Notes under the pieces: model-generated
Database searches by the model: none
What the model was told of the DNA's origin: nothing
Seen by the model: only the letters and a program-made list of their open reading frames with translations
Shown: positions 7,215 through 10,090 of the stretch, piece after piece
Layout of the letters: each line of letters starts with the position of its first letter
Numbering within the stretch: the first letter of the stretch is position 1
Position numbers and translations under genes: made by a program
Source of the DNA: Actinomycetales bacterium
GTDB lineage: Bacteria; Actinomycetota; Actinomycetes; S36-B12
Assembly (NCBI GenBank): GCA_018970025.1
Contig: JAGWXF010000015.1
Span: 109-64,108, forward strand
DNA length: 64,000 nt
Reading direction: 5' to 3'

Positions 7215-9860
7215 TCAACCACCGTCCGCGGCTCGGGCGGCATCCAGCCCGCCCTCGAGCAGCGCGATGAAGCCGCGTTGGCCGATGATTGGGACGCCGA
7301 GGTCCTCTGCCTTCTTGCGCTTGCTGCTCGGCTTGGCCCCAGCATCCCCCTGGACGAGCACACTAGTCGCCTTCGACACCGAGGACGCGACCTTCGCGCC
7401 ACGCTCGCTAACGGCCTCGGCCGCGCTGTCGCGGGTGAAGCCCTCGATGGATCCGGTGATGACCACGGTCAGCCCGGCCAGCGGGCCGGGGGCGCTCGCC
7501 GTGCGCTCCTGTGCCAGCCGCACGCCGCCGCGTCGCCACTTCTCGACCACCTCGCGATGCCAGTCGATGTCGAACCACTCGCGGATCGCCGCGGCGATCG
7601 TCGGCCCGACCCCGTCGACACTGGCGAGCTCCTCCAGGCTGGCGGCGGCCAGGGCATCGATCGAGTCAAACCCCTCCGCGAGGTCCTTGGCCGTCGGCGG
7701 CCCGACATGACGCATCGACAGGGCCACGATGACCCGCCATAGCGGCTTGGCACGGGCGGCATCGAGCTGGGCCAGCATCGCCCTGGCGTTCTCGCCGAGC
7801 TGCTTGCCCTCCTCCCCGCGCCCGGGATCCCGGGTGAAGAAGGACGTCCGCAGGAGGTCCTGCTCGGTCAGCAGGAACAGGTCGCCCTCGTCGCCGACGA
7901 CACCCTCCTCGAGCAGGGCACGGGCGGCCTTGTCCCCCAGGCCCTCGATGTCCAGCGCCGATCGCGATGCCACATGAGCGATGCGCTCTCGCAACTGGGC
8001 CGGGCAGCTGCGGGCATTCGGGCAGCGCAGGTCCTTGTCGCCCTCCTTCTCCGGGCGCAGGTCCGTCCCGCACTCCGGGCAGGCGGTTGGCATCACGAAG
8101 GCGCGCTCGGTGCCGTCCCGCACCTCCACGACCGGGCCGAGGACCTCCGGGATCACGTCCCCCGCCTTGCGCAGGAACACCATGTCGCCGATGAGCACGC
8201 CCTTGCGCTCCACCTCGGAGGCGTTGTGCAGGGTCGCCATCGCCACCGTCGAGCCCGCCACCCGCACCGGCGCCATCACCGCGAAGGGCGTCACCCGGCC
8301 GGTCCGGCCGACATTGACCGCGATGTCCAGCAGCCGCGTGCGCACCACCTCCGGCGGGTACTTGTAGGCGATGGCCCACCGCGGGGCCCGCGAGGTCTCG
8401 CCGAGCCGCGCCTGCTGGCCGAGGTCGTCGACCTTGATCACGACCCCGTCGATCTCGTGCTCGATGTCGTGACGATGCTCGCCGTAGTGGGCGATGTAGT
8501 CGCGCACCTCGGCCGGACTGCCCAGCACCCGGGCACGCTCGCTGACCGGCAGGCCCAGGGACGCCAGGACGTCGTACCCCTGGCTCTGACGGGCCAGCGA
8601 CACCCCCTCCACCATGCCGATCCCGTGCACGGTGAGCTGCAGCTGGGCCAGCCGATCAATGGAACGCTGCACCTCGACCCGCAGTCGATCCGCCTTGGTA
8701 GCACTGCGGGCCGACTGGGCTGCTGCCAGGTCCTGCTGGCGCCGATCCACCCGCTGGCGCAGCGATCCGGCGGCGGCATTGCGCGGATTGGAGAACGCCG
8801 GCAGGCCCAGGCTCAGCTGCTCCTCATTGAGCCGCTCGAACGAGGCGACCGGGAAGAAGACCTCGCCCCGCACCTCCAGCAGGGCCGGCACCTCCACCCC
8901 CGCCCGAGGCTGGAGCTGCTGGGGGATGCCCGGGATGAACTGGGCATTGAAGGTGACGTCCTCGCCGGTGACACCGTCACCGCGCGTGGCCAGCGAGTGC
9001 AGGCGCCCCTCGCGATAGACCGCATCAACCGCCAGGCCGTCGATCTTCAGCTCGCACAGCAGCGGCGGGACCTCCCCCAGCCCCGACTCCACCCGATCCA
9101 GCCAGGCCTGCAGCTCCTCCTCGTCGAAGGCGTTGTCCAGGGAGTACATCCGCTGCAGGTGCTCCACCGGGGAGAACATCCCCGCCGGCTGGCCGCCGAC
9201 CGACTGGGTCGGCGAGTCCGCCGTTGCCAGCTCAGGCCACGAGGCCTCAAGCTCGACCAGCTCACGGTAGAGCCGGTCGTACTCCTCGTCCGAGAGCGCG
9301 GGCCGATCATGCTGGTAGTACGCAGCCCGGGCGCCATTCACCAGGTCGACGAGCTCGGCCCACCGAACGCGAGCGGGTCGAATGCCGCGGACGCCGGTGG
9401 ATTCAGTTAGGAGCCTTCCAATCTCCGCAAGCCTGGTTTCGACGCGGGAAGCGATGAACGCCAGTCGCTCCGCTTCCGCTTCGCTCGCTGCTGCCTGTGA
9501 TGACAGGTCTCGGGCACTGGCCCGGCCCTGACGCCTTTTGCTGGACTGGATAACCCCGGGGATCAGAGCCCAGCCGCGATGCCCCGCCTCCTGGGACCGT
9601 CTATTGAGCTCGCCAGCCAGAGCGAGGGTTTGTTCGAGCTTGAGGCGAAGCGATTCAAGGTCCTTAGTCGCCTCCTCGTCTTGCGATGCGAGGAAAGCCT
9701 CGGTCGTCTTGATGAAGTCTGGCGCATTCAGCGCTCGGAGCCTTGCAACGTGGTCGCGTCTAACTGCGAGATCATCAACCGCACACATCGAGCAAACCAC
9801 ATCTGCCAGATTGGTGAGCACGCCACCACACACTGCACATCGCTTCACGCTGTTCCCCAT
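7215..9860 (-). CDS. ligA: NAD-dependent DNA ligase with an in-frame N-terminal zinc-ribbon/helical extension of about 170 aa
   Basis: Adenylation motif [10 protein letters not shown], Cys4 finger CPECGTDL...[10 protein letters not shown], HhH region, and BRCT tail [40 protein letters not shown]. The frame is open to GTG 9914. ATG 9860 ([13 protein letters not shown]) is chosen here, with GTG 9341 as the alternative. See findings. Confidence 0.88.
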
Positions 9861-10090
9861 AACCCACGAACTCGCGCGGCCTCCGTGTCGGTCACGACAG
9901 CAGTTCAGCAGCACATCCTACCCGGACACCGTCGCCGACCTCGCCGCCCGAAACACGCTGCGCGACCTCATCCTGGACACCGCCCCGGCCGCCGACAAGG
10001 AAGCACAACCCAGCCCCGAGCACGGCGCCCAGGACCAGCAGCCCGCCGGATCGGTGGCGCTGCGCCGCCTGGGCCTGCAGCAGCTAACAC

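Follow-up and report, generated by a model that had tools for sequence, protein, structure and literature searches.

An insertion at the 5' end of ligA, the gene for the NAD+-dependent DNA ligase, has removed the native start codon of this gene and joined its reading frame to a foreign gene for a zinc-ribbon protein in the DNA analysed here, a stretch of 64,000 nucleotides from an Actinomycetales bacterium (contig JAGWXF010000015.1 of assembly GCA_018970025.1; hereafter, the window). All bacteria replicate their DNA with the ligase LigA, which is also a drug target. We think it rather probable that the insertion was recent, that the ligase is now made as a chimera from the start codon of the captured gene, that this chimera is active and that the captured part, here named the module, is a passenger. 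A preliminary description of this DNA, made from the letters and their open reading frames (ORFs), had proposed that a small zinc-ribbon/coiled-coil gene, acquired horizontally, had taken the place of the 5' end of ligA or been fused to it, and gene order in relatives, homology of the module and its codon composition all bear this proposal out. The outcome is about 170 foreign residues ahead of domain Ia of the ligase, and the kind of event behind it, fusion after an insertion, is already known.

The ligA reading frame and its start codons

The LigA core (717 residues) occupies positions 7215 to 9368 on the minus strand and starts at the conserved helix of domain Ia, as delimited by Pfam and NCBIfam matches, by identity to relatives and by the GC content of third codon positions (GC3). 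Pfam detected all six LigA domains, in canonical order, in the C-terminal 700 residues: Nlig-Ia, adenylation domain, OB fold, C4 zinc finger, helix-hairpin-helix and BRCT. Domain Ia (PF22745) was found at residues 197-231 of the full ORF with 33 bits against a cutoff of 27 and aligns with relatives, the adenylation (nucleotidyltransferase) domain PF01653 was matched with E = 9.5e-76, and PF03120, PF03119, PF12826 and PF00533 were all over their cutoffs. The motif I lysine, KxDG, is present (CELKIDG), and the LigA equivalog of NCBIfam, NF005932, scored 760 bits against a cutoff of 369. The core is 83% identical to LigA of the closest relative, the metagenomic contig L081, and about 71% identical to LigA of other relatives from metagenome-assembled genomes (MAGs). 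It has host codon usage, there are no frameshifts in ligA or its neighbours, and the order of the locus is canonical (mnmA, a Meth_synt_2-like gene, ligA, gatCAB). Like the canonical LigA of E. coli and M. tuberculosis, these 717 C-terminal residues hold the full domain set and the catalytic motif, in a conserved actinobacterial locus. Every bacterium examined has an NAD-dependent ligase, which serves in replication (PMC7470946), so that a non-functional ligA would be improbable here. Judged from its sequence, the protein is a LigA by its catalytic core and a variant by its architecture, as the core is complete and a canonical N-terminal domain Ia with its own nearby start is lacking.

The difference lies upstream of the core. 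As the preliminary description had it, the ligA frame stays open 5' of the first LigA helix as far as ATG 9860 and GTG 9914, and the resulting ORF of 899 residues (7215-9914, minus strand) is opened by GTG 9914, with an in-frame TAG at 9918-9920 closing the frame immediately 5'. Pfam detected no domain in residues 1-191 of this ORF. By a codon walk, the canonical in-frame starts are GTG 9914, ATG 9860, GTG 9848, 9833, 9821 and 9800, ATG 9788 and GTG 9341; between ATG 9788 and GTG 9341 there are 148 successive codons without ATG, GTG or TTG, so that the earlier statement that no such codon separates the cysteine cluster from domain Ia was correct. To place this arrangement among relatives, we drew 160 related ligA loci from collections of genomes and metagenomes; in 154 of them the upstream sequence was readable. 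None of the 154 lacked a canonical start within 44 codons ahead of the conserved helix. The distance from start to helix had a median of 11 codons in these relatives (range 2-44) and is 140 codons in the window. Unlike canonical LigA, whose domain Ia is preceded by 2-44 residues in the 154 relatives, the ligase of the window thus carries its foreign residues there and has no start codon of its own.

The in-frame codon nearest to a normal start, GTG 9341, encodes the V of 'DLVNG' and lies seven codons past the W of 'RW.EL'. A start there would lose two residues of the first helix of domain Ia: this W, found in 132 of 155 relatives, and the L, found in 150 of 155. It had been pointed out before that GTG 9341 would truncate the helix and has no Shine-Dalgarno sequence. 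Both points hold, but by pairing energies all other candidate starts were within background as well. If LigA nevertheless had its start at GTG 9341, or used a non-canonical codon of the linker such as ATT 9383, a ligase of near-normal size would be made and the zinc-ribbon ORF would be untranslated or irrelevant. GTG 9341 is in frame, Shine-Dalgarno strength cannot rank the candidate starts, and many starts of actinobacteria have weak Shine-Dalgarno sequences or are leaderless. A start at 9341 would also keep the YY...D..YD of domain Ia, which we take to be the contacts to nicotinamide mononucleotide, in an E. coli numbering that reportedly comes from work by Sriskanda and Shuman in 2002. We regard this alternative as unlikely, given the loss of W and L from helix 1. 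None of the 154 relatives starts within the helix, no codon tested pairs more weakly with the anti-Shine-Dalgarno sequence than ATT 9383 (-1.7 kcal/mol), and no sigma-70-type promoter-like site was found in 9200-10700.

The zinc-ribbon module and its homologues

The captured gene lies at 9420-9848 on the minus strand, in the ligA frame, with limits taken from phmmer, BLASTP, an alignment with its homologues (alignment A1), AlphaFold2 (AF2) modelling and GC3. Composition sets it apart from its surroundings. GC content falls to 0.57 at 9600-9900, against a mean of 0.695 for the window, and GC3 is 0.636 at 9420-9848, compared with 0.898 in the ligA core and 0.84-0.94 in neighbouring host genes. 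These values bear out the observation, made by eye, that codons in about 9390-9860 frequently end in A or T and those of the rest of ligA in G or C. Because the GC3 of the module has not drifted toward host composition, the event would be a recent one.

The cysteine cluster noted earlier in the extension is present: positions 9783-9860 read CxxC-x11-CxxC, and the four cysteines of the putative zinc ribbon (C8, C11, C23 and C26, counted from ATG 9860; 9783-9839, minus strand) surround the motif 'VLTNL'. The zinc ribbon is followed by a long helix, a loop with the motif (H/R)GW.(L/F)(I/L)..I(E/Q)S..R(R/K) and a second long helix. The extension had been called protein-like, and homology now supports this. 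By phmmer against 1.84 billion cluster representatives, the module matched P0001, a protein of 359 residues (E = 2.1e-10), and P0003, a stand-alone protein of 139 residues (E = 1.6e-4). A third match, a low-complexity repeat protein covering residues 5-37 only, was disregarded. The N-terminal part of P0001 is 34% identical to the module over module residues 5-147 (BLASTP, E = 5e-17), and P0001 and P0003 match one another (BLASTP, E = 2e-09). Alignment A1 of the three sequences has 24 invariant columns, among them the four cysteines, 'VLTNL' and, in the loop, 'GW' and the I, S and R that come after it. We conclude that the three proteins form an unannotated family and that the module is genuinely coding.

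The family is very rare. A word-indexed search of 5.8 billion proteins gave no match for the module or for the N-terminal part of P0001, a profile search recovered P0003 only, and the exhaustive HMMER scan alone found both homologues. The module was not found in metagenome contigs, IMG/VR, or plasmid or phage collections, and neither Pfam, PHROGs, PADLOC, NCBIfam nor PDB sequences gave anything significant that could name it. What the three proteins share is the pattern K.C..C.gVLTNL....C..C, the long helices and the loop motif, with 29-34% identity over about 140 residues. They differ in what follows: P0003 stands alone and P0001 has an unrelated C-terminal extension, whereas the copy in the window has no stop. 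The zinc-ribbon pattern and the similarity over the full length are thus present in the window copy, and a stop codon of its own is absent.

The ends of P0003 locate the captured part. P0003 begins, with Met1, opposite GTG 9848 and ends opposite about 9420; the copy in the window is therefore a nearly entire gene, short of its last few codons and its stop. Translation of the chimera would then begin within 9846-9860 (minus strand; alignment A1 and the list of starts), and of the two codons there GTG 9848 would give a protein of 877 residues and ATG 9860 one of 881; we infer a start at one of the two from the alignment. Between module and core, a codon walk and the alignment with L081 delimit a fusion linker of 17 codons (9369-9419, minus strand) without a canonical start codon. 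No match to the linker was seen in the module family or in the leaders of LigA from relatives; out-of-frame TAA and TGA triplets fall within it, at about 9400-9405.

AF2 with the three-sequence alignment modelled the module with a predicted local distance difference test score (pLDDT) of 80, with zinc knuckles at residues 1-30 and helices at 31-96 and 106-155. The loop with the GW motif, between the two helices, was modelled with low confidence, and the linker had a pLDDT of 46-64. A single-sequence AF2 model of the module with domain Ia reached a pLDDT of 51, too poor for use. Foldseek comparison of the three-sequence model with the PDB returned nothing with E < 4. In having four zinc-site cysteines together with a long hairpin of antiparallel helices, the module recalls DksA/TraR, a likeness that we presume to be useful as a lead and not as an assignment. 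Membership in DksA/TraR was rejected, as there was no Pfam match at E <= 10 and no sequence or fold match in the PDB, and the order of the elements is reversed, the zinc ribbon being N-terminal here. Two ORFs on the plus strand overlap the module, at 9538-10101 and 9579-10187. Neither has a Pfam or PHROG match, and because the homology across 9420-9848 lies in the minus-strand ligA frame, we rejected both as real genes and read them over this interval as antisense shadows.

P0001 is encoded on a contig of 76% GC (L162 1-10817 / L163; Logan SRR32022410 and SRR32022564). Its neighbours include an SNF2 helicase (DpdE/ZorD-like), DnaJ, a sigma-70-type factor, HIRAN, RNase H and DUF3039 genes, and further a Toprim primase-like gene (PADLOC 'RTasDnaG-like'), an Eco29kI-type nuclease and four unannotated ORFs. 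The contig could be an uncharacterised island or mobile element, with a gene content typical of genomic islands. The primase-like neighbour had no match in plasmids or phages, and for this reason a mobile or defence island context of P0001 is read from domain content only. P0003 lies on a 1.3-kb contig of 56% GC, beside a DUF1232 gene. Neither P0001 nor P0003 is fused to a ligase or adjoins one.

The ancestral junction and the inserted DNA

The gene upstream of ligA, Meth_synt_2-like (cobalamin-independent methionine-synthase-like, Pfam PF01717), is at 10383-11705 on the minus strand, a position supported by synteny with L001, L007 and L081, and in relatives it is translationally coupled to ligA. 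In L081 its stop overlaps the ATG of ligA by one base and LigA starts MEPRSDARAARKRWTQLVDLV; the junctions of L001 and L007 are as compact. The two genes are adjacent in 47 of the 64 relatives that have both. In the window they are parted by about 1.0-1.1 kb of non-homologous DNA. An alignment of ligA 5' regions from relatives, as the preliminary description had proposed, shows where homology breaks: it ends at about 10472 and resumes at about 9378, at '...ARVRW', the alignment with L081 being convincing only from 'CGC..CGGTGG'. Both flanks of the insert are collinear with the relatives and in the correct orientation. None of the 160 related loci carries the module near ligA.

A mis-assembly, in the form of a chimeric metagenomic contig, or an indel error could also produce such a junction or the whole insert, the true ligA start then being normal. 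The closest relatives are all MAGs, so the window assembly is perhaps of uncertain quality; the insert is a patchwork of a truncated DUF5679 sequence, an orphan stretch and a stopless gene; and the same junction occurs in no second sequence. We consider an artefact quite unlikely. Collinear and correctly oriented flanks are not normally given by a chimeric join, a single indel in the linker would restore no ligA start (there is no in-frame start within 9419-9369), and ligA and its neighbours are free of frameshifts. A second low-GC insertion on the far side of ligA, the vapBC cassette described below, argues that this locus does acquire DNA.

The insert consists of three parts: an ORF of 69 codons, an orphan stretch and the low-GC3 zinc-ribbon ORF that runs into ligA. 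The ATG of the 69-codon ORF (10184-10393, minus strand) overlaps the end of the Meth_synt_2-like gene, where relatives have the start of ligA. The ORF holds the first half of a DUF5679 zinc ribbon (EAYCVKCKEKRDF...ETNG), matching positions 1-19 of the 40 of the profile (PF18930) with 22.9 bits, under the cutoff of 27 bits, and then diverges; the second CxxC of DUF5679 is absent from all three frames, and full membership in DUF5679 does not follow. Its sequence suggests that it is probably a gene fragment. Because its GC3 (0.92) is host-like, it was probably left by an earlier rearrangement and is not part of the same foreign DNA. The Meth_synt_2-like gene itself has a C-terminal tail that diverges from relatives from about 10470 and is about 18 residues longer than that of L081; the insertion may have changed this tail too. 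The orphan stretch (9915-10183, GC 0.70-0.73) has no identifiable gene. Within it, codon-position GC at 9920-10100 is what a remnant of high-GC coding sequence would show, whether on the plus strand or in a different minus-strand frame, and a terminator scan found a terminator-like hairpin at 10010-10038 on the minus strand. An 18-nucleotide inverted repeat (10095-10112 / 10173-10190) was also seen in the orphan region.

The borders were searched for traces of a mobile element. An origin as insertion sequence, transposon or miniature inverted-repeat transposable element found no backing, with no terminal inverted repeats at the borders and no transposase domain in the insert (Pfam, PHROG). The same was true of an integrative element, as there is no tRNA in the whole window and no Rfam match in 9000-10800. 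To the eye, both borders seemed to retain fragments of the stop/start overlap of relatives and perhaps a short direct repeat, CCACCG(G)CG; these candidates were rejected after their Smith-Waterman scores were equalled or exceeded by 1259-1989 of 2000 shuffles, and no target-site duplication rose above shuffled background at the insert borders.

The junction between the Meth_synt_2-like gene and ligA also varies in distant relatives, where several loci of Nocardia and Pseudonocardia type have the two genes 0.3-3.8 kb apart. In L008 (2600-3960) an ORF in the opposite orientation lies at the junction and resembles, by eye, a multi-pass membrane transporter; L037, L058, L074 and further loci are varied as well. 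This junction appears to be a recurrent insertion target.

Interpretation of the chimera and other features of the window

The following course of events would account for these results. Mosaic DNA of about 1.0-1.1 kb was inserted at the Meth_synt_2-like/ligA junction, reaching from about 9378 to somewhere in 10383-10470, and removed the ligA start codon with a short leader of about 10-15 codons. The end of the insert proximal to ligA is a gene of the very rare family, with its N-terminal zinc ribbon and long helical hairpin. Stripped of its last few codons and its stop, the captured gene reads in frame through the 17-codon linker into domain Ia, and the ligase would be translated from GTG 9848 or ATG 9860 as a chimera of 877-881 residues. 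The appendage would be tolerated on a probably flexible linker and the enzyme would still seal nicks, a tolerance we infer from two facts: domain Ia neither contacts DNA nor helps to bind it (PMC7470946), and the linker is unmatched and of low pLDDT. The module would most likely persist as the supplier of the sole usable start of an essential gene, and not for an added function. Altogether, the fusion, seen in a single sequence, is probably a young evolutionary accident.

Three observations weigh against this reading. No start that could serve the chimera has a clear Shine-Dalgarno sequence; an in-frame join is a 1-in-3 chance accident if ligA is no longer needed; and the fusion was seen in one sequence only, being absent from the 160 loci and from the metagenome, IMG/VR, plasmid and phage collections. 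Because of this single occurrence, conservation is unusable as an argument here.

On another view, a second ligA elsewhere in the genome would supply the function, the present copy would be starting to decay and its join with the module would be a neutral one that fell in frame by the same chance. Some bacteria do have two LigA genes, Deinococcus deserti being an example (PMC6300522), and our view takes in 64 kb of the genome. This explanation seems improbable to us: the locus is the ancestral syntenic site of ligA, all domains and catalytic motifs are intact with a host-like GC3 of 0.90, and no second ligA was noticed among the inspected ORFs and low-GC regions of the window, where no dedicated search was made.

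Least probable of all is an adaptive fusion, in which the module would, for example, make LigA oligomerise, bring it to a partner or a DNA structure, or shield it from a factor of a mobile element, as would befit its confidently modelled zinc ribbon and helical hairpin, its invariant loop motif and the setting of P0001 among genes of DNA metabolism (SNF2 helicase, Toprim primase-like, RNase H, HIRAN and Eco29kI-type nuclease), but the fusion is a singleton, its undrifted composition implies a very recent event, no family member elsewhere is fused to or beside a ligase, and Pfam, PHROGs, PADLOC, NCBIfam, the PDB and Foldseek gave no functional annotation or structural analogue.

As a long shot, the fusion might be taken as a 'Rosetta stone', whereby the module family would normally work with the host NAD+ ligase or at nicks, and its attachment would recruit or oligomerise LigA. 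Were this speculative idea true, no natural LigA before that of the window would have carried an N-terminal module for regulation or targeting, and the orphan family would gain a function. The roles suggested in the preliminary description, a tether of the ligase to a partner or to DNA or an added regulation, are likewise speculative.

The preliminary description had stated that no LigA architecture with such an N-terminal module was known, and our results, as far as they reach, agree: literature searches found no described LigA with an N-terminal zinc-ribbon fusion, the extension contains no Pfam domain, none of the 160 related loci has it, and NAD-dependent ligases are architecturally uniform, with domain Ia as their N-terminal-most part, according to a 2020 review (PMC7470946). 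A ligase core with a fused extra module is in itself a recognised theme of ligase evolution, as in LigD, in which an ATP-dependent ligase is joined to polymerase and phosphoesterase modules (PMC7470946). Unlike the fusion of the window, those of LigD are conserved in many taxa, bring in enzymes whose role has been demonstrated and fall in the ATP-dependent class; in the window, a fusion seen once joins a module of no known activity to the replicative NAD+-dependent enzyme.

Should the chimera prove real and active, it would show that domain Ia can bear a large N-terminal addition and that an essential gene can survive the loss of its start by capturing one from incoming foreign DNA. A module with a function would be a lead to a new protein that assists or regulates NAD+ ligases. 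The locus also matters for annotation, as homology-guided start calling would truncate the gene, and longest-ORF calling would report an unexplained 'LigA' of 899 residues.

On the other side of ligA, between this gene and gatC, lies a toxin-antitoxin pair of vapBC type (6384-7096, minus strand, GC about 0.62). It consists of VapC (6384-6833; TIGR00028, 88 bits, cutoff 73.6) and a small antitoxin-like ORF (6830-7096), and the GC3 of the module resembles that of this cassette. In L081, gatC follows only 25 bp after ligA. Because vapBC splits this pair of genes, ligA is bracketed in the window by two low-GC insertions. The only other low-GC spot in the 64 kb, at 59350-60530, corresponds to genes for the a and c subunits of ATP synthase (ORF translations, read by eye); since these are hydrophobic membrane proteins, we attribute its low GC to a composition effect and not to foreign DNA.

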